A stretch of DNA of 10,496 bases from a candidate division WOR-3 bacterium. Lineage in GTDB: Bacteria; Hydrothermota; UBA3072; B12-G15. Numbering within the stretch: the stretch's first letter is position 1; each line of letters starts with the position of its first letter. Positions 123 through 10,347 of this stretch are shown here, piece by piece. The DNA lies in contig CBFGJG010000062.1 of NCBI GenBank assembly GCA_965649055.1, forward strand, positions 1-10,496. Direction: 5' to 3'. Below the pieces are notes generated by a model. That model was not told the DNA's origin. It worked only from the letters and a program-made list of their open reading frames with translations, and made no database searches. Both the position numbers and the translations under genes were made by a program.

Positions 123-3100
123 ATGGCAAAGAAGAGAAGCATTACTGAGGCAATACTATCTTTTTTGCCAAGGAATATAGATTTATCAAAAGAAGTAGAT
201 TATTTTAATTCTACATTACTTTTTGTTGATATTTCAGGCTTCACTTCAATGAGTGAAAAGCTCGCTAACCTTGGGAGGGAAGGTTCAGAGGAAGTAAACA
301 GGATAATCAATAACTTCTTTTCACCACTTATTCAAATAGTTTATAAGTATAATGGAGATATATTGCATTTTGCCGGTGATGCTTTCCTCTCTCACTTTAA
401 AGGTGATGATGAAAAGGCGACAGAAAACGGAATGTTAGCAGCTATTGAAATAATTGGATTTGCCGAAAAAAATTCATCCGTAAAAACAAAGATGGGGACA
501 TTTAATTTAAAATTACACATTGCTTTAAATAAAGGAAAGGTTTTTTATATCGATTTAAAAAACAGATATTTTTTCTGTGGGAATACTGTCAATGAACTTA
601 TGAAACTTGTTGACCTTGCAAGCTCAGGAGAGATAGTTGTTAGTGAATCGGTAAAGAAGGATATTAAAAATGCAAGGTTTAAAGAGATAAAAGGTGCTTA
701 TAAATATATTAATGGGGATTTGAAAATAAAAGAACATACTGAAAGAAATTTGTTTCCTACACAGGATATCCCTGAAGATAAAATTAAATGTTTAATCCCT
801 GATTGGCTCCTTAAAAGGATAAAGATAAAACCGGAGTTTGATTATAAAGATGGGGAACACAGAAAGATAACATTTGTATTCCTCCATTTCTCGGGAATTC
901 CTTATGATAGTGACAAGGATAAGTCTGTAAGATTGCTTAGAAAATTTAACAGAATATTAAAACTCACAGCTGATAAATATGATGGTTGGGTTAATCGTTT
1001 AGATGTTTACAAGGATAGTGAAAGGGCTTTTATTATATTTGGTTTCCCGATTGCTTACGAAGATCAGGAGGAAAGGGCATTGCTTTTTATAAATGAGATA
1101 ATAAATAATTCTGATATTAAAGATATAAAGATAAGAGCTGGTGTTAACTCCGGGTTTGTATTCATATCACCGGTTGGTAATGAGATAAGAAGAGAATATA
1201 CTATAATTGGTGATGCAGTAAATCTTTGTGCAAGGATTGCTTCATCTGCAGATATTGGAAATGTTTTTATCACTGAAGAAATATATAATAGAACTTATGA
1301 TTTATTTGAATATGAATCAATAGGTGCTAAAGAATACAAAGGTAAGAAAGATAAAATACCTATTTTTGCACTTTTAACAAAAAAGAAAATTGAGCATAAA
1401 AAAACAAATAGATGGATAAGTGAGAGTGAAAAACTGGTAAATAGGAAAAAAGAAATAGAAAAGATAAAAGAATTAATTAATCTATCTTATGCTTCAAAAG
1501 GTCAGATAATAAGAATCGTTGGTGAACCGGGAATAGGTAAATCAAGGCTCACAGAGGAAATGATAAAAATATCAGAAGAAAAGGGATTTAGTATTTTTGT
1601 GGGAAATTGTGTTTCATATGGAAGTTCATTTTCATACCATCCTTTTATTAATATATTAAACGAACTATTTGGAATATCTTTAAATGATCCAGTAGAGTCA
1701 AAGAAGGAAAAAATTGCTAAAAAATGTGAAAAAGTGAATAAGGAGCTAGTTGAATGGCTACCTTTAATCGGTGAAATTATGGGAATAAAGTTTGACGAGA
1801 CTAAACTTATAAAATATATAGACGCTAAAACTAAAAAGCAAAGGATAAATGAGATAATTTTTGAGCTTGTAAGATTTGAATCAAATGTAAAACCAATAAA
1901 CATTATAATTGAAGATATGCACTGGGCAGATTCAGGTTCAATTGATGTAATAAACTATATAGGTAGAAATATTGAAAACGAAAAAATATTATTGACACTT
2001 GTATATAGACCAATTGAGAGAATAGAAGAGTTTATGGAAAAAGAATGGTCTCATGAATTTATACTGAAAGAACTATCAGGTGAAGAAATAAGTGAATTGA
2101 TAACTAACCTTCTTTATATAAAAAATATCCCTGAAGATTTATGGAAAACAATAGTAGAAAAATCTCAGGGGAATCCATTCTATGTTGAAGAACTTATAAA
2201 ATCACTCATTGAACAAGGAGTTATTATAGAAGAGAAAGAAGGATGGAGTTTTAATAAAGAGACGAAGGAAATAAAACTACCTGACACACTTGAATCTTTA
2301 ATCCTTTCAAGGATAGATAGACTTGCATTTCAGGATAAGAATATATTGCAGATTTGTTCTGTCTTTGGTAAAGAATTTGATGAATTCCTGATAATGGGAC
2401 TTATAGATAATAAAAATGAACTTAACAGATCAATTCAAAACCTTCAACGCCTTGATCTGCTTAAAAAAGAAACTAAAACTGGTGAAGTTAAATACTATTT
2501 CAAACATATTCTTACGAGGGAAGTTACATACAATACAATTTCATATGCCAGGAGAGAAGAGTTACATAAGAAAACAGCACTTTATATTGAAAAAGAAATG
2601 CAAGAAAGAAAAGATGAATTTTTACATTTACTTTCGTATCATTTTTATATGGGGAAAGATTATGAGAAATCACTTATATATTCTGTTTTAGCTGGCGAAA
2701 GGGCAAAAAAAATTTATGCAAATAAGGAAGCAATAGAATTTTTCACAAGGGCAATAGAATCTTATGAAAGACTCAACGATATAGATAAAAAAGAGAAAAA
2801 GGAATTATACATTAAAGCACTTGAAGGACTGGGTGATGTTGAACATTTAATTGCGAAATATGATGAATCTATAAAAAGATATGAAAAAATTAAAGATATT
2901 TGTGTAGATGATATTGAAAAAATACACAATGCTACATATCAAATTGTTCTGAATATAATTTTGGGTAAAGATGATATTGATAATGCGAAGAAAATAATTA
3001 AAGAATTGCTCTTAGAGATTGACAGGATTAAGGAAAAGGACTTATTCCTGAAATCATTAAACATTCTCGGAGTTATAGAAAGAAGACGAGGAAATTATGA

Positions 3101-3815
3101 TGATGCTTTAAAATATCTTAGAGAAGGATTGGAATTGTCAAAAGAACTGAACGATAAGGAAAAAACATGTGTATTCCAGTCTAATATTGCACACATTGCT
3201 TACAATAGGGGTGATTATGACACTGCGATCGAAATGTTCAATAAATCATTGGAACTTGTGGATAGAGAAGATATGATAAGATTAGGGCAGATATATTCAA
3301 ATCTAGGGCTTATATATCAGTATAAAAAGGAACTGGATAAAGCACTTGAATATTATAATTTATGTTTGAAGATGTGTGAAAAGATAGGGTATAGAAAACT
3401 ATATGCACACACTCTTGGAGATATCGCTGTTATATATAAAGAAAAAAAAGACTATAATACAGCACTTGAATATTTAAACATGGCACTTTCTATCCTTAAA
3501 AATATTGATGCCTTAAGAGATACGGGAATAGTAATTTCTCTAATTGGCACTGTTTATTTTAGTTTGGGGGAATTTGAAAAAAGTCTTGAATATATAAATA
3601 ATTCTTTATCTATATACAATAAATTAGGTGATAAAAGACTGATTGCAACGAGCTATCAAAAAATTGGTGAGATTTATATAAAATTAAAAAGATTTAAAGA
3701 TGCTTATGAATTCCTGAAAAAAAGCGAAGAGATATTTGAAAAAATCAAAAATAAACCAGAACTGGAAAAAACCCGTGAACTTCTTAAAGAAATAGAAAAA
3801 CAAGATTTAAAATAA
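123..3815 (+). CDS. Adenylate/guanylate cyclase domain protein: tandem class III cyclase domains + STAND/AAA ATPase + TPR repeats
   Basis: 1230-aa ORF. Cyclase domain 1: LLFVDISGFT (D36) and FAGDA (D86). Cyclase domain 2: RREYTIIGDAVNLCAR (T360, N367, R371). Walker A GEPGIGKS (aa 467-474, nt 1521-1544), Walker B IIIEDMHWAD, GNPFY, YYFKHILTREVTY winged-helix motif, then ~40-aa helical repeats at the C terminus. Confidence 0.93.
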   Translation: MAKKRSITEAILSFLPRNIDLSKEVDYFNSTLLFVDISGFTSMSEKLANLGREGSEEVNRIINNFFSPLIQIVYKYNGDILHFAGDAFLSHFKGDDEKATENGMLAAIEIIGFAEKNSSVKTKMGTFNLKLHIALNKGKVFYIDLKNRYFFCGNTVNELMKLVDLASSGEIVVSESVKKDIKNARFKEIKGAYKYINGDLKIKEHTERNLFPTQDIPEDKIKCLIPDWLLKRIKIKPEFDYKDGEHRKITFVFLHFSGIPYDSDKDKSVRLLRKFNRILKLTADKYDGWVNRLDVYKDSERAFIIFGFPIAYEDQEERALLFINEIINNSDIKDIKIRAGVNSGFVFISPVGNEIRREYTIIGDAVNLCARIASSADIGNVFITEEIYNRTYDLFEYESIGAKEYKGKKDKIPIFALLTKKKIEHKKTNRWISESEKLVNRKKEIEKIKELINLSYASKGQIIRIVGEPGIGKSRLTEEMIKISEEKGFSIFVGNCVSYGSSFSYHPFINILNELFGISLNDPVESKKEKIAKKCEKVNKELVEWLPLIGEIMGIKFDETKLIKYIDAKTKKQRINEIIFELVRFESNVKPINIIIEDMHWADSGSIDVINYIGRNIENEKILLTLVYRPIERIEEFMEKEWSHEFILKELSGEEISELITNLLYIKNIPEDLWKTIVEKSQGNPFYVEELIKSLIEQGVIIEEKEGWSFNKETKEIKLPDTLESLILSRIDRLAFQDKNILQICSVFGKEFDEFLIMGLIDNKNELNRSIQNLQRLDLLKKETKTGEVKYYFKHILTREVTYNTISYARREELHKKTALYIEKEMQERKDEFLHLLSYHFYMGKDYEKSLIYSVLAGERAKKIYANKEAIEFFTRAIESYERLNDIDKKEKKELYIKALEGLGDVEHLIAKYDESIKRYEKIKDICVDDIEKIHNATYQIVLNIILGKDDIDNAKKIIKELLLEIDRIKEKDLFLKSLNILGVIERRRGNYDDALKYLREGLELSKELNDKEKTCVFQSNIAHIAYNRGDYDTAIEMFNKSLELVDREDMIRLGQIYSNLGLIYQYKKELDKALEYYNLCLKMCEKIGYRKLYAHTLGDIAVIYKEKKDYNTALEYLNMALSILKNIDALRDTGIVISLIGTVYFSLGEFEKSLEYINNSLSIYNKLGDKRLIATSYQKIGEIYIKLKRFKDAYEFLKKSEEIFEKIKNKPELEKTRELLKEIEKQDLK

Positions 3816-3944: not shown

Positions 3945-4949
3945 ATGGATTTTAAAAATAAGCATTTGATCACATTTGATACATGGACAAAGGAAGAAAT
4001 AGAACATGTCCTTGATGTTTCGGGTTTTCTTAAAGAAAAATACAAGAAAAAAGAACCAACAGAATACCTTAAATATTACACTCTTTTTATGATTTTCTTT
4101 GAACAATCAACAAGGACAAGGAACTCCATGGAAGCCGGGATGACACAACTCGGTGGTCATGCACATGACTTGACACCTGAAAAGATGCAATTATCACACG
4201 GTGAGACACCAAAGGATACTGCAAAAGTCCTTTCAAGGATGGGAGAAGGAATAGCAATAAGGAATTGTTTCTATAATATCGGGAATAGATACATAGAAGA
4301 GGTTGCAAAATATTCTGAAATCCCTGTTATATCAATGCAGGATGATGTTTATCATCCTTTACAGGTTATAGCAGACCTGATGACTATAAGGGAACATTTC
4401 GGGAATAACCTTAAAGGTCTTAAAGTTGCAATACTATGGGCTTATGCAACAAGCCATGCAAAACCTTTGTCAGTTCCACAATCACAGGCTCTGCTTTTCC
4501 CAAGATATGGTATGGATGTTGTTATTGCAAATCCGGAAGAATTTCCATTGCAGAAAAATATAATAGAGAAGGCTAAAAAAAATGCAAAAGAGAATGGTGG
4601 AAGTATAAAGATTGTGAATAGTTTTGAAGAAGGTATAAAAGATGCAGATATAGTTATACCTAAAAACTGGGGTGGATTTGGATACTTTGATAAATGGGAA
4701 GATACAGATGAACAAAAGAATATTATGAAAAAAAACCTTGAAAAGCACAAGGACTGGATATGCGACGAAAAAAGATTCAAACTTGCAAAAAAAGATGCAA
4801 AGATAATGCATGCATTACCAGCAGATAGAGGAAAAGAGATAGTTGATGAACTTCTTGACGGACCAAATTCAATAATATACGATGAGGCTGAAAATAGACT
4901 CCATACATCAAAGGCAATCCTTACACTGACAATGAGAGGTGGAGTATAA
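3945..4949 (+). CDS. Ornithine/aspartate carbamoyltransferase-family protein, YgeW-like knotted transcarbamylase
   Basis: Carbamoyl-phosphate motifs STRT (4107-4118) and HPLQ, plus EAENRLH. WAYATSHAKPLSVPQ loop and DADIVIPKNW resemble YgeW (WAYSPSYGKPLSVPQ, DADIVYPKSW). No DxxxSMG ornithine motif, and HALP replaces HCLP. Alternative start is ATG 3942. Confidence 0.9.
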   Translation: MDFKNKHLITFDTWTKEEIEHVLDVSGFLKEKYKKKEPTEYLKYYTLFMIFFEQSTRTRNSMEAGMTQLGGHAHDLTPEKMQLSHGETPKDTAKVLSRMGEGIAIRNCFYNIGNRYIEEVAKYSEIPVISMQDDVYHPLQVIADLMTIREHFGNNLKGLKVAILWAYATSHAKPLSVPQSQALLFPRYGMDVVIANPEEFPLQKNIIEKAKKNAKENGGSIKIVNSFEEGIKDADIVIPKNWGGFGYFDKWEDTDEQKNIMKKNLEKHKDWICDEKRFKLAKKDAKIMHALPADRGKEIVDELLDGPNSIIYDEAENRLHTSKAILTLTMRGGV

Positions 4950-6067
4950 AATTCAAACAGAGATGCTTTGAATGTAAAAAAGAATATGATTTTGACCCAT
5001 TTTTGATGCTCTGCCCTGAATGTTCAAAGAAAAATACGAAAGAAAAACCATTACACGGAATACTTGAGTTTATATATGATTTTGATAAAAAGGAAATATT
5101 AAATCTTCCAGTAGAAGATGATTTTTTTCCAAATATACCAGTTGGTAAAACACCTTTATTTAAACCTGATTATTTTAAATCATCAGGTTTTCAAAATGTA
5201 TTTATAAAGAATGATTCATTAAATCCTACTGGTTCATTGAAAGACAGGGCTTCTATACTTGTTGCAGCTTCTGCAAGAAAATACGGTATTAAAGAGATAG
5301 TTGTTGCATCGACAGGGAATGCAGGTTCATCCATGGCAGGAATTGGCGCTGCGTCTGGGATAAAGGTAAAATTGTTTGTTCCTGAAAAGATACCAAAAGC
5401 AAAACTTATTCAGGCAAAACAGTATGGTGCAGAAGTTGTTCTGGTTAAAGGAAACTATGATAAGGCTTATGATTTATGTATGGAATATTCCTTAGAAAAA
5501 AAAATCCTATCAAGGAATACCGCATACAATCCGATGACAATAGAAGGAAAAAAAACAGTAGTCTTTGAGATATTTGAGGAGTTAAAAAGAATTCCGGATT
5601 ATATTTTTCTTCCAGCAGGTGATGGTGTTATACTTGGTGGTGTTTATAAAGGTTTGCTTGAACTTTATAAGATGAATAAAATTAAAAAGATTCCAGAAGT
5701 ATTTGCAGTCCAGAGTGAAAGAAGTTCTGCTATTGCGAATGCTTTAAAAGAAGGTGATTTTAGAAGGATAAATGCGGATTCTATTGCTGATTCAATAAAT
5801 GTAGATGTCCCGAGGAATGGATATTATGCGCTAAAAATGCTTAAAAAATACAATGGGGAATGTGTGGTTGTAAGTGATGATGAAATTTTAAAATCTCAAC
5901 TATTGCTCTCTTCAAAGACCGGTATATTTGCAGAACCTGCTGCTTCTGCATCTTTTGCTGGATTTATGAAGATGAAGGATAGGATAGATAAAGATAAAAT
6001 AGCGGTTATCCTGATAACAGGCTCAGGGCTTAAAGACATAGAAAATGCATCAAAATTGATAAAATGA
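4946..6067 (+). CDS. Threonine synthase-like PLP-dependent enzyme (fold type II) with N-terminal CxxC...CxxC zinc ribbon
   Basis: NPTGSLKDR (PLP Lys at 5240-5242), ASTGNAG, EGKKT, GIFAEPAAS, LITGSGLKD. The ORF track starts at TTG 5003, but the frame is open upstream and encodes the first CFEC pair (4964-4975). I place the start at ATA 4946, 5 nt after GAGGT. The start is less certain than the family call. Confidence 0.88.
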   Translation: MKFKQRCFECKKEYDFDPFLMLCPECSKKNTKEKPLHGILEFIYDFDKKEILNLPVEDDFFPNIPVGKTPLFKPDYFKSSGFQNVFIKNDSLNPTGSLKDRASILVAASARKYGIKEIVVASTGNAGSSMAGIGAASGIKVKLFVPEKIPKAKLIQAKQYGAEVVLVKGNYDKAYDLCMEYSLEKKILSRNTAYNPMTIEGKKTVVFEIFEELKRIPDYIFLPAGDGVILGGVYKGLLELYKMNKIKKIPEVFAVQSERSSAIANALKEGDFRRINADSIADSINVDVPRNGYYALKMLKKYNGECVVVSDDEILKSQLLLSSKTGIFAEPAASASFAGFMKMKDRIDKDKIAVILITGSGLKDIENASKLIK

Positions 6068-6624
6068 ATTCAGATGTTATAATACTTGCAGCAGGAAAAT
6101 CGGAGAGGATGAAAACTTGGAAGATAGAACTTGATTTTAAAGGTAAGAATATGATTGAGATTGTTGTTGAAAAATTTGAAGACATTTGTAAAAATATTAT
6201 AGTTGTAGGTGGTTATAATTTTGATATGTTGAAAAAGATACTGAATAAAAAAAAGATTAATATGGTTTATAATGAGAGATACAATGAAGAAATGTTTTTA
6301 TCAGTAAAAAAAGGTGTTTCATTTGTTGAAAGTGAAAGGTTTTTTATTATCCCTGCAGATTGCCCATTTGTTAGGAAGGAAACAATCTTAAATATGCTTA
6401 GTTTAGATGAAGATATTGTTGTTCCGTTCTATAATGGTAAAGGGGGTCATCCGATTCTTATGAAAAAATATTTGAAGATTGAATTGCTGAGTGAGCCAGA
6501 TACATCAAGCTTAAAAGAATTTATCAAAAGAAAAGGATTTAAAAGGATATATGTTGATGATGAAAATATTTTGATAGATATTGATACTTTGGAAGATTAT
6601 GAAAGATACAAAGAGATATATTGA
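6064..6624 (+). CDS. mocA: Molybdenum cofactor cytidylyltransferase-like nucleotidyltransferase (MocA/YgfJ, NTP_transf_3 family)
   Basis: IILAAGKSERM...K, PADCPFV, GKGGHPIL and DIDTLEDY motifs. ATGA overlap with the upstream gene. Adjacent to XDH-family subunits, which typically use molybdopterin cytosine dinucleotide. Confidence 0.85.
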   Translation: MNSDVIILAAGKSERMKTWKIELDFKGKNMIEIVVEKFEDICKNIIVVGGYNFDMLKKILNKKKINMVYNERYNEEMFLSVKKGVSFVESERFFIIPADCPFVRKETILNMLSLDEDIVVPFYNGKGGHPILMKKYLKIELLSEPDTSSLKEFIKRKGFKRIYVDDENILIDIDTLEDYERYKEIY

Positions 6625-8650
6625 TGATATAGATTTTGGTGATGTCCTTTATGGTAAGACATTATATTCAGAGATTCCAAAAGGAGAGATTTTATCTATA
6701 GAAATTCCAGAGCTTCCTGATGGATATTTTATTGTCGATTATAAAGATGTTCCTTTAAACAGGGTGAAGGTGATAAATGATGAACAACCAGTATTTGCAG
6801 AAAGGTATGTGAATTATGTGGGTGAACCAATACTTCTTGTTGTTGGAAAAGATAAGGGGATTTTAAGCGAAATAATAAGAAAAATAAAGATTGATTACAG
6901 GATTGAAGAACCTGTTTTAACAATTGATGATGCGATAAGTAGAAATAATGTTATTGTGAGTTATCAGTATGAGAAAGGGAATGTTGAAGAAACAATGAAA
7001 AACGCAAATGAGATAATTGAAGGAACATATGAAACAGGTTATCAGGAACATCTTTATCTTGAAACACAAGGGATGGTTGGTGTTTATAAAGATGGAAAAA
7101 TCTCTGTTTATGGTTCAATGCAATGCCCTTACTATGTTAAGAATGCATTGATACACGCATTGAAAATGGATGAAGATAAGATAAGGGTTGTTCAGGTTTC
7201 AACTGGTGGTGGATTTGGTGGTAAGGAAGATTACCCATCTATACTTGGAATTCAGGTTGCAGTTGCAGCAATGAAATGTTCAAAACCTGTTAAGATTGTT
7301 TACGATAGAAAAGAAGATTTTATAATGACAACGAAAAGGCATCCTTCAAGGATTATATATAAGACAGCTCTTGATGATGATTTAAAACCTGTTGGTATGG
7401 ATGTTTTGATTTATCTTGATGGTGGTGCATATACAACTTTATCACCTGTTGTTCTTCAAAGGGCAATGTTTTCAGCAGAAGGTGTTTACAATATCCCAAA
7501 CCTGAGGGTGAAAGGCATTGTCTTAAGAACAAACAAAGTTCCATCAGGTGCAATGAGGGGATTTGGAGCACCACAGAACTTTTTTGCTGTTGAGACACAT
7601 ATTGATGATATAATAAGAAGGTTTAATCTTAATCCATATTATTATAGAAAGAAAATATTAATAAAAGAGAATGATAGAACACCAACGAATGGGATATATA
7701 GAGGTGAAATAAAGATAAGGGAGATGCTTGATAAGATAGTGAAGGAATCAGATTTTCTTGAAAAATACAAAAGATTTAAAAAGATGAAGAATAAAGGAAT
7801 TGGTATTTCCTGTTTCTTCCATGGTTGCGGATTCACTGGTTCAGGTGAGATACTATTAAGAAGCACTGTTAAGGTGAGAAAAAAAGGAGATAATATTATA
7901 ATTTATATGAGCAATGTTGATATGGGGCAGAAATCTACTGAAGGTATTAAGAAGATAGCAGCAATGACACTTGGTATACCATTAGAAAATATAATAATTG
8001 AAAAACCTGATACAGATATAGTTCCTGATTCAGGACCAACCGTTGCATCAAGGACAACACAGATTGTAGGGAAACTTGTTAAGGATGCATGTGAGGAGAT
8101 AAAAAAGAATAAAGATAAAAAAGAGATAACTGTTTTGAAAACATTCAAATTTCCAGAAGTTCTTTTATGGGATGGTGAAAAATTTTCAGGTGATTCCTAT
8201 GGAGAATATTCATTCGGGATAAATATTGCAGAGGTTGAATTTGATGATATAACAAAAGAGGTGAAGATTTTAAAGATATATGGTATTTATGATGTTGGGA
8301 CACCAATTGATAAAGAATTTGTGAGGCAACAACTTGAAGGTGGGATTGTCCAAGGTCTTGGTTATTCAATATTTGAATCACTTGATGTTGATAAGAATGG
8401 AAATTTTAACAAATTCACATTAACAGATTATGCAGTCCCAACATCAATGGATATTCCTGAAATAAAAATATGGATTTATAAAACAAAAGGTCTATTTGGA
8501 CCTTTTGGAGCAAAATGCTGTGGAGAACTTCCATTTGTTGGTGTTGCACCTGCTGTATGTTCTGCTGTTAGAATGGCTCTTCGCAAAAATATTTCAAGGA
8601 TACCGATAACCCCGGAATATATTCAGAGGATTTTAAAATATGAAGATTAA
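6599..8650 (+). CDS. Xanthine dehydrogenase family molybdopterin-binding (large) subunit
   Basis: YIDD, QEHLYLETQG, GGGFGGKE, AMRGFGAPQ, VDMGQ, DSGPTVASR, EGGIVQGLG and KCCGELP (catalytic Glu at 8525-8527). Start is ATG 6599 or TTG 6581, with an in-frame TAG at 6575-6577 limiting any upstream extension. Confidence 0.93.
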   Translation: MKDTKRYIDDIDFGDVLYGKTLYSEIPKGEILSIEIPELPDGYFIVDYKDVPLNRVKVINDEQPVFAERYVNYVGEPILLVVGKDKGILSEIIRKIKIDYRIEEPVLTIDDAISRNNVIVSYQYEKGNVEETMKNANEIIEGTYETGYQEHLYLETQGMVGVYKDGKISVYGSMQCPYYVKNALIHALKMDEDKIRVVQVSTGGGFGGKEDYPSILGIQVAVAAMKCSKPVKIVYDRKEDFIMTTKRHPSRIIYKTALDDDLKPVGMDVLIYLDGGAYTTLSPVVLQRAMFSAEGVYNIPNLRVKGIVLRTNKVPSGAMRGFGAPQNFFAVETHIDDIIRRFNLNPYYYRKKILIKENDRTPTNGIYRGEIKIREMLDKIVKESDFLEKYKRFKKMKNKGIGISCFFHGCGFTGSGEILLRSTVKVRKKGDNIIIYMSNVDMGQKSTEGIKKIAAMTLGIPLENIIIEKPDTDIVPDSGPTVASRTTQIVGKLVKDACEEIKKNKDKKEITVLKTFKFPEVLLWDGEKFSGDSYGEYSFGINIAEVEFDDITKEVKILKIYGIYDVGTPIDKEFVRQQLEGGIVQGLGYSIFESLDVDKNGNFNKFTLTDYAVPTSMDIPEIKIWIYKTKGLFGPFGAKCCGELPFVGVAPAVCSAVRMALRKNISRIPITPEYIQRILKYED

Positions 8651-9080
8651 ATTTTATTTGAATGGAAAAAGAAAAATAATAGATGTAAATCCTTTAAGGA
8701 GACTGGTTGATGTTTTAAGGGAAGATTTAAATATAAAAAGTGTTAAGGAAGGATGTGGTGAAGGTGAATGTGGAAGTTGTATGGTTATTGTTGATGGTAA
8801 GATTATGAATTCCTGTCTTATTCCTGCGGGTTCTTTATATAATAAGAGAATTTTAACGATTGAAGGAATAAAGAATGATAAAGTTTTTATGAAAATCAGG
8901 AAGAAGATAGAGGATGAATTCCAATGTGGATTCTGTGAGAATGGAATGCTTATATCTTTGTATTGGTTATATAAAAATAAGAAGAATCCAGAGAAGAAGG
9001 ATATAAAAGAAGCAATATCAGGAAATATATGTAGATGCACTGGCTATCAGGGGATAATAAAAGGATTAAAGGATGGATGA
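8640..9080 (+). CDS. Xanthine dehydrogenase family (2Fe-2S)-binding small subunit
   Basis: Two cluster motifs: GCGEGECGSC...NSC and QCGFC...CRCTGY. GAGGA RBS at 8626-8630. Overlaps the large subunit by 11 nt. Confidence 0.93.
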   Translation: MKIKFYLNGKRKIIDVNPLRRLVDVLREDLNIKSVKEGCGEGECGSCMVIVDGKIMNSCLIPAGSLYNKRILTIEGIKNDKVFMKIRKKIEDEFQCGFCENGMLISLYWLYKNKKNPEKKDIKEAISGNICRCTGYQGIIKGLKDG

Positions 9081-9927
9081 AATTGTAATTCCTGTTGATT
9101 TAAAAGATGCTCTTAATATTTTGAAGGATAGGAACCTTATTCCATTTGCAGGTGGGACTGATTTGATGGTAAAATACAGGTTTGATAAACCTGAAAAGCC
9201 TTTTATATTCATAGGTGATTTAAAAGAATTAAGATATATAAAGAAAGAAGGTTCAGTTGTAAGAATTGGTGCATCTATAAGATATAACGAATTACTTGAA
9301 TCTAAGATTATTCCAGTTGTATTCAAAGATATAATAAAAAATATAGGTTCACCATCAATAAGGAATATGGGAACTATTGGTGGGAATATATGCAATGCCT
9401 CACCTGCTGCTGATACATTACCATTTCTATACGCAATGGATGCAGAGGTTGTAGTTTCATCTTTTGAGAATGAAAAGATTATTTCCATTTTTGATTTTAT
9501 AAAAGGTCCCAAGGAAACAATCTTAATGAAAAATGAATTATTAAAAGAGGTAAGATTTAAGTTGGAAAAATTTAACAAATATTATTATAGAAAGATTGGA
9601 TTAAGAAATGCAAATTCTTTATCAAAGGTCTCATTCTTTGGATGTGCGAAGATTATTGAAGGTAAGATTGAAGATATAAGGATAGCATTTGGTGCAGTTT
9701 CTCCTATAGTTGTGCGTGATAGAAAAATTGAAGAAATGTTTATTGGGAATGACAGAAAAGTATTGGATAAAATTAAAAAAGATATAATAGAAAGATATTC
9801 TGAAATTATAAGACCAATAGATGATCAGAGGTCGACAAAAGAATACAGGAAAGAAATAGCATTAAGATTACTTGAAGATTTTATTCTTATGTTATTCAAA
9901 AAATCAGAGAAAAAATGCGTAAATTGA
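9073..9927 (+). CDS. Xanthine dehydrogenase family FAD-binding (medium) subunit
   Basis: AGGTDL, IRNMGTIGGNICNASPAAD, RIAFGAV and PIDDQRSTKEYR motifs. Overlaps the Fe-S subunit by 8 nt. Confidence 0.93.
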   Translation: MDEIVIPVDLKDALNILKDRNLIPFAGGTDLMVKYRFDKPEKPFIFIGDLKELRYIKKEGSVVRIGASIRYNELLESKIIPVVFKDIIKNIGSPSIRNMGTIGGNICNASPAADTLPFLYAMDAEVVVSSFENEKIISIFDFIKGPKETILMKNELLKEVRFKLEKFNKYYYRKIGLRNANSLSKVSFFGCAKIIEGKIEDIRIAFGAVSPIVVRDRKIEEMFIGNDRKVLDKIKKDIIERYSEIIRPIDDQRSTKEYRKEIALRLLEDFILMLFKKSEKKCVN

Positions 9928-10347
9928 ATGAGGTTATTTTTGTAATAAGTTCTATTATTTTTAATTTATCCGTGAGCGTTGTTTATGTATCTTCAAAGGA
10001 TGATTTGACAAATATTTTTTTAAAAATTTCAGGCTTGATCGTTGTTTCTTTAATAATTCCATTTATTATATCACTTGTTGGTTTTATTAAAGGCAGGGCA
10101 AAAATAAAGATAATAATCTCAAATATTATTGTAATTTTCTATCTATTACTGGAAAATATTATTAGATTATATCTTACGAATACCTTTCAGGCAAATTTTA
10201 TCTATTCATTTACCATATATAATTATCTTTTATGCTGCTACTTTCAGTATGATAGGTGCAAGTTTCACAATAAACAGGAAAATCGGATTTATTGTATTGG
10301 GAACATTTTTTGTTTTAATGGGATGTTTAATTTATAATCTTAGTTAG
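9915..10347 (+). pseudogene. Small integral membrane protein of unknown function, interrupted by a +1 frameshift near 10153-10156 (pseudogene or sequencing error)
   Basis: Codons 9915-10154 give about three hydrophobic helices ending FYLLLE. Dropping one A from the A4 run continues as ILLDYILRIPFRQILSIHLPYIIIFYAATFSMIGASFTINRKIGFIVLGTFFVLMGCLIYNLS* (TAG 10345-10347), giving 143 aa. The uncorrected ORF is 9915-10337. Confidence 0.7.

Follow-up and report, generated by a model that had tools for sequence, protein, structure and literature searches.

The stretch of DNA analysed here, 10,496 nucleotides and referred to below as the window, is the entire contig CBFGJG010000062.1 (C62) of a candidate division WOR-3 bacterium (assembly GCA_965649055.1). 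The gene in question encodes a pyridoxal-phosphate (PLP) enzyme with the fold of threonine synthase (ThrC), here named ThrCL, in which the residues of the substrate-phosphate site have been exchanged. The place of ThrCL in the reductive urate pathway is well supported, and we lean towards the view that it would perform the step of E. coli YgeX, the conversion of 2,3-diaminopropionate to pyruvate and ammonia, as judged from genomic context and from its anti-correlation with the DpaL family of YgeX. A second PLP enzyme, PALP486, accompanies ThrCL in most genomes, and this step is given to ThrCL rather than to PALP486 because ThrCL alternates with DpaL while PALP486 accompanies either. The pairing of ThrCL with PALP486, and of PALP486 also with true DpaL-family genes, is new in this analysis.

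According to the available text of two reports from 2025 (PMC12507026; 10.1101/2025.04.24.650524), urate is reduced to 2,8-dioxopurine, whose rings are opened by YgfK, SsnA and HyuA to yield 2,3-diureidopropionate; YgeW and YgeY take off the ureido groups, and YgeX converts the resulting 2,3-diaminopropionate to pyruvate and ammonia.

Active site, family and start of ThrCL

A first, sequence-only reading of the window had described a ThrC-fold enzyme lacking the phosphate-binding residues, and its description of the protein holds. The motifs NPMTIEGKKT (residues 195-204) and PAGDGVI (residues 223-229) lie at the coordinates claimed (Table 1), the PLP lysine motif is intact (K99 in NPTGSLKDR), and the replacement of Arg by Thr198, of Gln by Lys202 and of Asn by Asp226 is real in the phmmer columns against four solved threonine synthases. 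These four, 2zsj, 6cgq, 2d1f and 1uim, were the top matches among solved structures (E 3e-47 to 5e-38) and read NPYRIEGQKT, NPYRLEGQKT, NPVRIEGQKT and NPHRLEGQKT, respectively, all with PVGNAGN; none shares the substitutions of ThrCL, as all keep the Thr, Arg, Gln and Asn. A further change, absent from the earlier reading, turns ASTGNT(S/A)AS into ASTGNAGSS. Counting along the 1uim row (T. thermophilus) gives K61, T88, N154, S155, R160, Q164 and N188, and in this numbering the changes are T88 to A126, S155 to T192, R160 to T198, Q164 to K202 and N188 to D226, with K61 kept as K99. We take T88, S155, R160 and N188 of T. thermophilus ThrC to hold the substrate phosphate of O-phosphohomoserine; the ThrC residues are not kept at these positions, which are A126, T192, T198 and D226 in ThrCL. 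The changes are not a matter of chance, since ten residues of the two motifs are invariant across an alignment of 21 homologues (N195, P196, E200, G201, K202, K203, G225, D226, V228 and I229). An AlphaFold model built on the same homologues reached a pLDDT of 88.1 and a pTM of 0.89, and its best Foldseek matches were all short-form ThrC structures (2d1f, 6nmx, 6cgq, 2zsj and 1uin; TM 0.72-0.83).

The altered pocket marks a large family. More than 7800 proteins matched ThrCL in a word-indexed search, the best 120 being full-length at 53-100% identity and mostly unnamed or annotated as threonine synthase, and an exhaustive search of representatives gave 873 clusters (50% identity) at E <= 1e-30. 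We assembled 162 sequences, namely the window protein, 18 close members, five Spirochaetota sequences, 132 representatives of 330-480 residues (18 of 150 were dropped for length) and six ThrC-family genes from genomes, five canonical, picked by BLAST guidance, and one (L102) reading M-L-Q-D at the four pocket positions; nine long-form ThrC loci (L097-L099, L101, L106-L110) had no match to ThrCL at 1e-10 and stayed outside the tree. Ala, Lys and Asp at positions 126, 202 and 226 were found together in 124 of the 162, with T, L, M, C, S or Q and never Arg at position 198, and the canonical ThrCs of the set read T-R-Q-N. In a tree made by FastTree only, with many inner forks open, all 124 fall within one clade of 132 rows (SH-like support 100) and six T-R-Q-N sequences form a separate one (support 99), so that the ThrCL signature is set apart from canonical ThrC. 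A scan of one genome per species returned at least 567 stretches encoding ThrCL relatives, of which 80 loci were kept; they come from Spirochaetota, Marinimicrobia, SAR324, Acidobacteriota, Desulfobacterota, Zixibacteria, Bacteroidales, Ignavibacteria, Chloroflexota, betaproteobacteria and others.

The start of the gene is unusual. Read from 4946, the gene encodes 373 residues before its TGA at 6065-6067, and at 4946 stands an ATA that overlaps the stop of the preceding carbamoyltransferase gene (ATAA, 4946-4949). No ATG, GTG or TTG is present between the in-frame stop at 4895-4897 and position 5003, and the first canonical start, the TTG at 5003, would remove half of an N-terminal zinc ribbon in which C23 and C26 are nearly invariant among the 21 homologues (consensus CSECG...MLCPECS). 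Within 4934-4964 the conserved ribbon coding begins by 4949, and the putative ATA start is preceded by GAGAGGTGGAG. Because the conserved coding precedes the first canonical start, translation probably begins at ATA 4946, as read from the sequence; a relative of the same family (L121) has a TTG start at the equivalent place. The two closest database homologues, P0003 and P0005, are likewise called from an internal Met.

Urate-pathway neighbourhood and alternation with DpaL

The ORFs (open reading frames) of the 80 loci were clustered and cluster representatives scanned with profiles; ORF calling was crude (longest non-overlapping ORFs), and since the ThrCL ORF was not recovered in six loci, counts of immediate neighbours use 74. 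The recurrent order is hydantoinase-like, SsnA, YgfK, YgeY, carbamoyltransferase, ThrCL, MocA, the three xanthine dehydrogenase (XDH) subunits (Mo, FeS, FAD), an unknown protein, DUF364/DUF4213, XdhC, an NTPase and PALP486. Among the 80 loci, the XDH Mo subunit is a neighbour in 45, PALP486 in 41, a carbamoyltransferase in 39, M20/YgeY in 37, SsnA in 28, YgfK in 19, MocA in 17, a hydantoinase-like gene in 12 and carbamate kinase in eight. At least one of XDH, carbamoyltransferase, M20/YgeY, SsnA, YgfK, hydantoinase-like gene and carbamate kinase, leaving PALP486 and MocA aside, is present in 65. Representatives exceed the curated cut-offs for YgeY (475.6 against 321), SsnA (475.5 against 444), YgfK (1050 against 835) and carbamate kinase (403.9 against 266), and tblastn with E. 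coli K-12 proteins gave matches of up to 71% for YgeW, 75% for YgeY, 70% for YgfK, 72% for SsnA and 58% for XdhD. The same search found YgeX in none of the 80 loci, the ten weak partial matches (43-47 bits) being ThrCL itself.

The remaining pathway genes of the WOR-3 genome are scattered over other contigs. C58 carries an SsnA-like gene (374.8 bits, under the cut-off of 444), a PydA/PreA-like reductase as in C. difficile UacX, and YgeY (497.4, over 321); C36 has a second XDH trio with a hydantoinase-like cyclic amidohydrolase, C37 a carbamate kinase (329.8, over 266) and C45 an 8-oxoguanine deaminase. Full-length YgfK was not found in this genome. C41 encodes an unknown protein, DUF364/DUF4213, XdhC, an NTPase and PALP486, an arrangement also seen after the XDH genes of L025, L054 and L203. 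This synteny suggests that C62 and C41 adjoin in the genome; neither end of C41 overlaps in sequence with the end of C62. The set at C41 1049-3797 (L085), comprising a 203-residue unknown protein, DUF4213+DUF364 ('putative heavy-metal chelation'), XdhC and NTPase_1, is conserved between the XDH genes and PALP486 and is presumably a molybdenum-cofactor maturation set.

The gene directly upstream of ThrCL had been called ygeW-like. A carbamoyltransferase gene does adjoin ThrCL, but its product stays under both YgeW cut-offs (NF005538 211.9 against 453; TIGR03316 201 against 500), with a match ending at model position 334 of 396, and is best described as OTC-like (ornithine carbamoyltransferase-like), its top model being the OTCase model TIGR00658, also under cut-off (257.9 against 280.85). 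It is 39.6% identical to E. coli YgeW. Orthologues at 53-72% identity occur in 24 of the 80 ThrCL loci, about 20 of them ending less than 200 bases from ThrCL, and one carbamoyltransferase of the window type (61% identity) lies in a DpaL-type cluster (L111). By curated cut-offs this protein belongs to a conserved group of its own, neither OTCase nor YgeW, and it is likely to be a putative ureido-group phosphorolysis enzyme that replaces YgeW. Three Spirochaetota loci (L009, L013 and L065) show the order PALP486, carbamoyltransferase (two copies in L013), carbamate kinase, YgfK, SsnA and ThrCL, and no YgeY over cut-off was found in their genomes (G002, G006 and G043); both ureido groups may be removed by phosphorolysis in L013.

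An anti-correlation of ThrCL with dpaL had been put forward as a check by the sequence-only reading, and it is seen at the level of loci, of genomes and of SsnA-positive Spirochaetota in a sample of that phylum. By sequence ThrCL is not of the DpaL family, as no DpaL model is among its best 25 NCBIfam matches, and DpaL was not found in its own genome, where the best match to TIGR03528 (27.1 bits, cut-off 532) lies on ThrCL itself. Genome-level counts of DpaL, PALP486 and ThrC cover 50 of the 80 ThrCL genomes, and TIGR03528 exceeded its cut-off in one of these (G033); in another (G009), a match of 301 bits contains an in-frame stop. We also took 301 Spirochaetota genomes, in which a ThrCL profile scored at least 458 bits in 12 genomes and 308-411 bits in 16, with canonical ThrC at about 210-245 bits. 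Five sequences fetched from the 308-411-bit group all had the ThrCL signature, and together with G073, where the match is split by insertions, the ThrCL-type genomes number 29. SsnA-family genes occur in 57 of the 301 genomes and DpaL-family genes in 34, and 28 of the 29 ThrCL-type genomes are SsnA-positive. Among the 57 SsnA-positive genomes, 27 are ThrCL-type only, 27 have a DpaL-family gene only, one has both and two have neither (Fisher p = 8e-13, for genomes that are kin and not independent). When SsnA is ignored, the association over the whole Spirochaetota sample is not significant (p = 0.22), because ThrCL and DpaL are both rare; only the SsnA-conditioned table is informative. The single SsnA-positive genome with both genes, G222 (C285:5341-6498, C671:12355-13539), has an in-frame TAA in ThrCL, which could reflect a replacement in progress or an assembly error.

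Taken as a replacement of DpaL, the proposal of the earlier reading stands in part: ThrCL holds the YgeX slot of the cluster and is anti-correlated with DpaL, but the exchange is not obviously one-for-one, given that PALP486 is a near-constant partner.

PALP486 and the proposed reaction at the end of the pathway

PALP486 is a CysK/CBS-like PLP enzyme of 485 residues. It retains the PLP-lysine motif, PTGAHK (K107), together with STGN and glycine-rich loops, and its core, which is close to that of CysK/CBS (TM to target about 0.8), is flanked by long extra N- and C-terminal helices. No specific family model was found for it, and its names in the ESM Atlas are generic ('putative cysteine synthase', 'PLP-dependent protein subunit beta'). 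The idea that PALP486 is a divergent YgeX was rejected, as it has no DpaL-model match and co-occurs with DpaL. A prediction of a ThrCL and PALP486 complex scored 0.00, with a mark of 0.32, values that argue neither for nor against such a complex.

Three layouts are observed at the end of the pathway: YgeX alone, ThrCL with PALP486, and a DpaL subfamily with PALP486. PALP486 is present in none of 26 genomes with DpaL over the TIGR03528 cut-off. The third layout is that of three Spirochaetota genomes (G243, G101 and G061), in which PALP486 occurs without ThrCL and adjoins a DpaL-family gene in the same cluster type; the DpaL-family genes beside PALP486 (L111, L112, L113/L114) exceed NF006058 (393-438 against 276) and TIGR01747 (308-356 against 274), and a fourth such cluster (G076) stops at a contig edge before the expected place of PALP486. 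ThrCL thus alternates with DpaL and PALP486 does not, a contrast drawn from few genomes.

We propose that ThrCL would be a fold-type II PLP enzyme that descends from threonine synthase but has given up O-phosphohomoserine as a substrate, and that it instead takes part in the three-carbon final stage of the reductive (2,8-dioxopurine) pathway, in the slot of E. coli YgeX/DpaL. After ring opening, the carbamoyltransferase and YgeY would take off the two ureido groups, and 2,3-diaminopropionate would be bound as an external aldimine on K99 and lose its alpha proton. An alpha,beta-elimination would then expel the beta-amino group, with Asp226 and Lys202 standing in place of the lost phosphate pocket and Asp226 perhaps holding or protonating the amine, and the released aminoacrylate would hydrolyse to pyruvate and ammonia. 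What we infer here is which substrate is used, that it undergoes elimination, and what Asp226 and Lys202 do.

Several observations weigh against this proposal. PALP486 is single-copy in 47 of the 50 ThrCL genomes, at 43-68% identity (46 of the 47 at 55-68%), the three genomes without it being assemblies of 1.9-2.2 Mb, and it is found in 24 of the 29 ThrCL-type Spirochaetota genomes; a partner this constant implies that the last step or steps are perhaps organised differently from E. coli, and were ThrCL to do the work of YgeX unaided, PALP486 would have to be accounted for in some other way. DpaL and PALP486 occur together in three clusters only. About 22 of the DpaL-only Spirochaetota genomes have near-identical scores and are probably of one genus, so that the independent contrasts are far fewer than the genome counts. 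Moreover, SsnA-family matches at E <= 1e-60 are absent from five of the 50 ThrCL genomes (G012, G031, G032, G037 and G039) and weak in three more (G026, G029 and G044), and the ThrCL/PALP486 pair is therefore not confined to complete urate pathways. The pocket itself leaves room for another substrate: that of ThrC takes a four-carbon chain with a phosphate, and diaminopropionate is much shorter, albizziin (2-amino-3-ureidopropionate) being about the length of O-phosphohomoserine; an Asp/Lys pair could equally hold a ureido group. Finally, ThrCL narrowly exceeds the threonine synthase model TIGR00260, with 171.3 bits against a cut-off of 167.1.

It is conceivable, though we consider it rather unlikely, that ThrCL and PALP486 form a two-enzyme terminal module sharing the work that YgeX does alone, be it with one enzyme for each enantiomer of diaminopropionate, with a racemase and a stereospecific lyase, or with ThrCL acting on a mono-ureido intermediate (albizziin or 3-amino-2-ureidopropionate). 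The near-constancy of PALP486 in ThrCL genomes, its absence beside high-scoring YgeX and the length of albizziin fit such a module, and PALP486 lies immediately downstream of ThrCL in 26 of 74 loci. A set of 80 metagenome loci seeded on PALP486 contains 37 with a ThrC-like gene nearby, 36 of these genes carrying the Lys and Asp signature, and none of the 80 has a YgeX-like gene. In the available text of PMC12507026 and 10.1101/2025.04.24.650524, E. coli YgeX is reported to act equally well on D- and L-diaminopropionate, and the pathway intermediate to have the (R) configuration. In most clusters, however, YgeY or a second carbamoyltransferase is still present and would be expected to release diaminopropionate beforehand. 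PALP486 may also have a wider role, as ThrCL is missing within 10 kb from 14 of the 41 metagenome loci with enough flank, three of which have PALP486 after PydA-like and M20 genes. In its most far-reaching form, which we offer tentatively and would not expect to hold in full, this idea states that in a large share of anaerobes with reductive urate breakdown an obligate ThrCL and PALP486 pair, not one bispecific enzyme, ends the pathway: ThrCL would be a lyase in which Asp and Lys have turned the phosphate pocket into a site for an amino or ureido group, PALP486 would have a chemistry of its own and might racemise (R)-diaminopropionate or cleave a ureido-alanine, and the last step, possibly also the last intermediate, would differ from the published pathway.

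We regard it as improbable that PALP486 is the true replacement of YgeX and that ThrCL has an unrelated job, for instance one tied to MocA and XDH. In 26 of 74 loci, and likewise in the window, the gene right after ThrCL encodes MocA or the XDH Mo subunit, and the CysK/CBS-like core of PALP486 belongs to a fold that does beta-elimination and beta-replacement. Yet PALP486 stands with DpaL-family genes in three clusters, whereas ThrCL meets DpaL in just one of the 57 SsnA-positive genomes; furthermore, locus L117 combines a true YgeX with an XDH of the window type (43.6% identity) but lacks both ThrCL and PALP486, which argues that ThrCL is not tied to this XDH.

As for threonine synthesis, the absence of hom and thrB noted for the window extends to the whole assembly, which is 93.8% complete: homoserine dehydrogenase (PF00742) has no match in it, in a search that was positive in 14 of 14 reference genomes, and the best homoserine kinase match (TIGR00191) reaches 64.5 bits, under the cut-off of 168.25. 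The short-form ThrC models all stay under cut-off for ThrCL (PRK05638 197.8 against 421, PRK08329 195.3 against 358, PRK06450 193.7 against 301), and 43 of the 50 other ThrCL genomes have a second ThrC-family gene, which scores 198-331 bits against TIGR00260 where their ThrCL scores 119-195 and in many cases falls under the cut-off. At E <= 1e-20, 24 of 30 relatives of the WOR-3 genome have no ThrC-like gene, including all 15 genomes of the best-sampled genus, which makes threonine auxotrophy plausible in the lineage; ThrCL orthologues occur in just two of the 30. This suggests a threonine-auxotrophic lineage with a patchy, probably horizontal, gain of the urate cluster. The view of ThrCL as a normal threonine synthase that happens to have an atypical active site is thus highly improbable, even though ThrCL is the only ThrC-family match in its genome, passes TIGR00260 and has relatives that databases name threonine synthase, in view of the changed pocket with none of the T/R/Q/N kept by all four solved enzymes, the missing homoserine genes, the separate canonical ThrC of most ThrCL genomes, the plausible auxotrophy and the catabolic operon around it.

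The window and related systems

The assembly has 2.08 Mb in 85 contigs, and the G+C content of the window (30.5%) compares with 31.6% for the genome. The operon is on the forward strand and tightly packed, with overlapping starts and stops, and runs from the carbamoyltransferase through ThrCL and the MocA-like gene to three XDH-family subunits (Table 1); the ThrCL stop overlaps the MocA-like start in the ATGA at 6064-6067. The best NCBIfam matches of the XDH Mo subunit are pucD/XdhA, all far under cut-off. As listed, its ORF begins at a TTG 44 bases inside the MocA-like gene; since orthologues align by tblastn from about 6608-6617 onwards, the real start is probably later than 6581. Directly upstream of the operon lies a gene for a 1230-residue protein with cyclase and AAA domains and a long array of tetratricopeptide repeats (TPR), which has no homologue in the 80 ThrCL-related loci and is hence probably outside the conserved system. 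Downstream, a hydrophobic ORF of 140 residues (9915-10337) overlaps the end of the XDH FAD subunit, 159 bases before the contig end; neither a Pfam family nor a homologue in the related loci was found for it.

Table 1. Features of the window and the PALP486 gene of the same genome, with the matches on which each assignment is based.
Feature	Position	Strand	Basis
Putative regulator, 1230 aa, adenylate/guanylate-cyclase domains, AAA_16 ATPase and TPR repeats	123..3815	+	Pfam PF00211 (2 stretches), PF13191, TPR families
OTC-like carbamoyltransferase, 335 aa	3942..4949	+	PF02729 + PF00185
ThrCL, ThrC-fold PLP enzyme with N-terminal zinc ribbon and changed phosphate-site residues	4946..6067	+	PF00291 238.9 bits; TIGR00260 171.3
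Zinc-ribbon cysteines C7/C10 (CFEC) and C23/C26 (CPEC) of ThrCL	4964..5023	+	21-homologue alignment
Codon of PLP-binding K99	5240..5242	+	aligned to K61 of 1uim; invariant in 21-homologue alignment
A126 replacing ThrC T88 (STGNT to STGNA)	5321..5323	+	phmmer alignment; invariant among 21 homologues
NPMTIEGKKT replacing ThrC NPxRxEGQKT (R160 to T198, Q164 to K202)	5528..5557	+	structure alignments, family alignments
PAGDGVI replacing ThrC PVGNAGN (N188 to D226)	5612..5632	+	structure alignments, family alignments
MocA-like molybdenum cofactor cytidylyltransferase	6064..6624	+	PF12804; TIGR03310 137.8 (cut-off 186.45)
XDH-family molybdopterin-binding subunit, 689 aa as listed	6581..8650	+	PF02738, PF20256, PF01315
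XDH-family 2Fe-2S subunit	8640..9080	+	PF01799, PF00111
XDH-family FAD-binding subunit	9073..9927	+	PF00941, PF03450
PALP486, CysK/CBS-like PLP enzyme, 485 aa	C41 3601-5058 (L085)		

A full-text search, which did not extend to the supplementary files of the pathway papers, found no published paper linking a threonine-synthase-like gene to the reductive urate pathway, and 'threonine synthase' is not named in the available text of PMC12507026 and 10.1101/2025.04.24.650524. In that text, the former marks any PF00291 gene near SsnA as 'YgeX', which would hide the ThrCL variant, and the latter scores YgeX by BLAST identity to a Clostridium protein. Surveys by BLAST identity therefore miss organisms with ThrCL, and those by PF00291 merge ThrCL, PALP486 and YgeX. 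This matters because the reductive urate pathway, worked out only in 2025, is being pursued for probiotics against gout and hyperuricaemia and in microbiome surveys. If our proposal is correct, a widespread family annotated 'threonine synthase' (at least 567 genome stretches) is mis-named, and genome-based predictions of threonine prototrophy and of urate degradation are both affected. ThrCL would then also illustrate neatly how a gamma-replacement enzyme of biosynthesis can become a catabolic lyase when its leaving-group pocket is rebuilt.

Among known systems, short-form ThrC (EC 4.2.3.1; A. aeolicus 2ZSJ, B. subtilis 6CGQ/6NMX, M. tuberculosis 2D1F, T. thermophilus 1UIM/1V7C) has the same fold as ThrCL at 29-33% identity and shares with it the PLP lysine, the S-T-G-N loop, the glycine-rich cofactor loop and the C-terminal TG(N/S)GLKD. 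ThrCL differs from it in its A/T/K/D pocket, its CxxC...CPxC zinc ribbon, its separate clade and its urate context without hom or thrB. A precedent for reuse of a ThrC-like scaffold in another reaction is the structure of CapA2 (9K3C), which ranks 21st among the Foldseek matches of ThrCL (TMq 0.78) at 19% identity; no sulfonate-pathway context was seen around ThrCL. Archaeal cysteate synthase is another enzyme derived from ThrC. YgeX/DpaL (E. coli b2871; TIGR03528, TIGR01747, NF006058) is, like ThrCL, a fold-type II PLP enzyme in the same cluster slot, but the two are not homologous at the family level, and ThrCL is almost always found with the PALP486 that high-scoring YgeX lacks. With the reductive urate pathway as a whole, the WOR-3 genome has in common YgeY, SsnA or an SsnA-like protein, a hydantoinase-like amidohydrolase, carbamate kinase, XDH-family enzymes and a carbamoyltransferase, on at least five contigs. 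It departs from that pathway in having a PydA-like reductase for YgfK, as in C. difficile UacX, an OTC-like carbamoyltransferase for YgeW, and ThrCL with PALP486 for YgeX.

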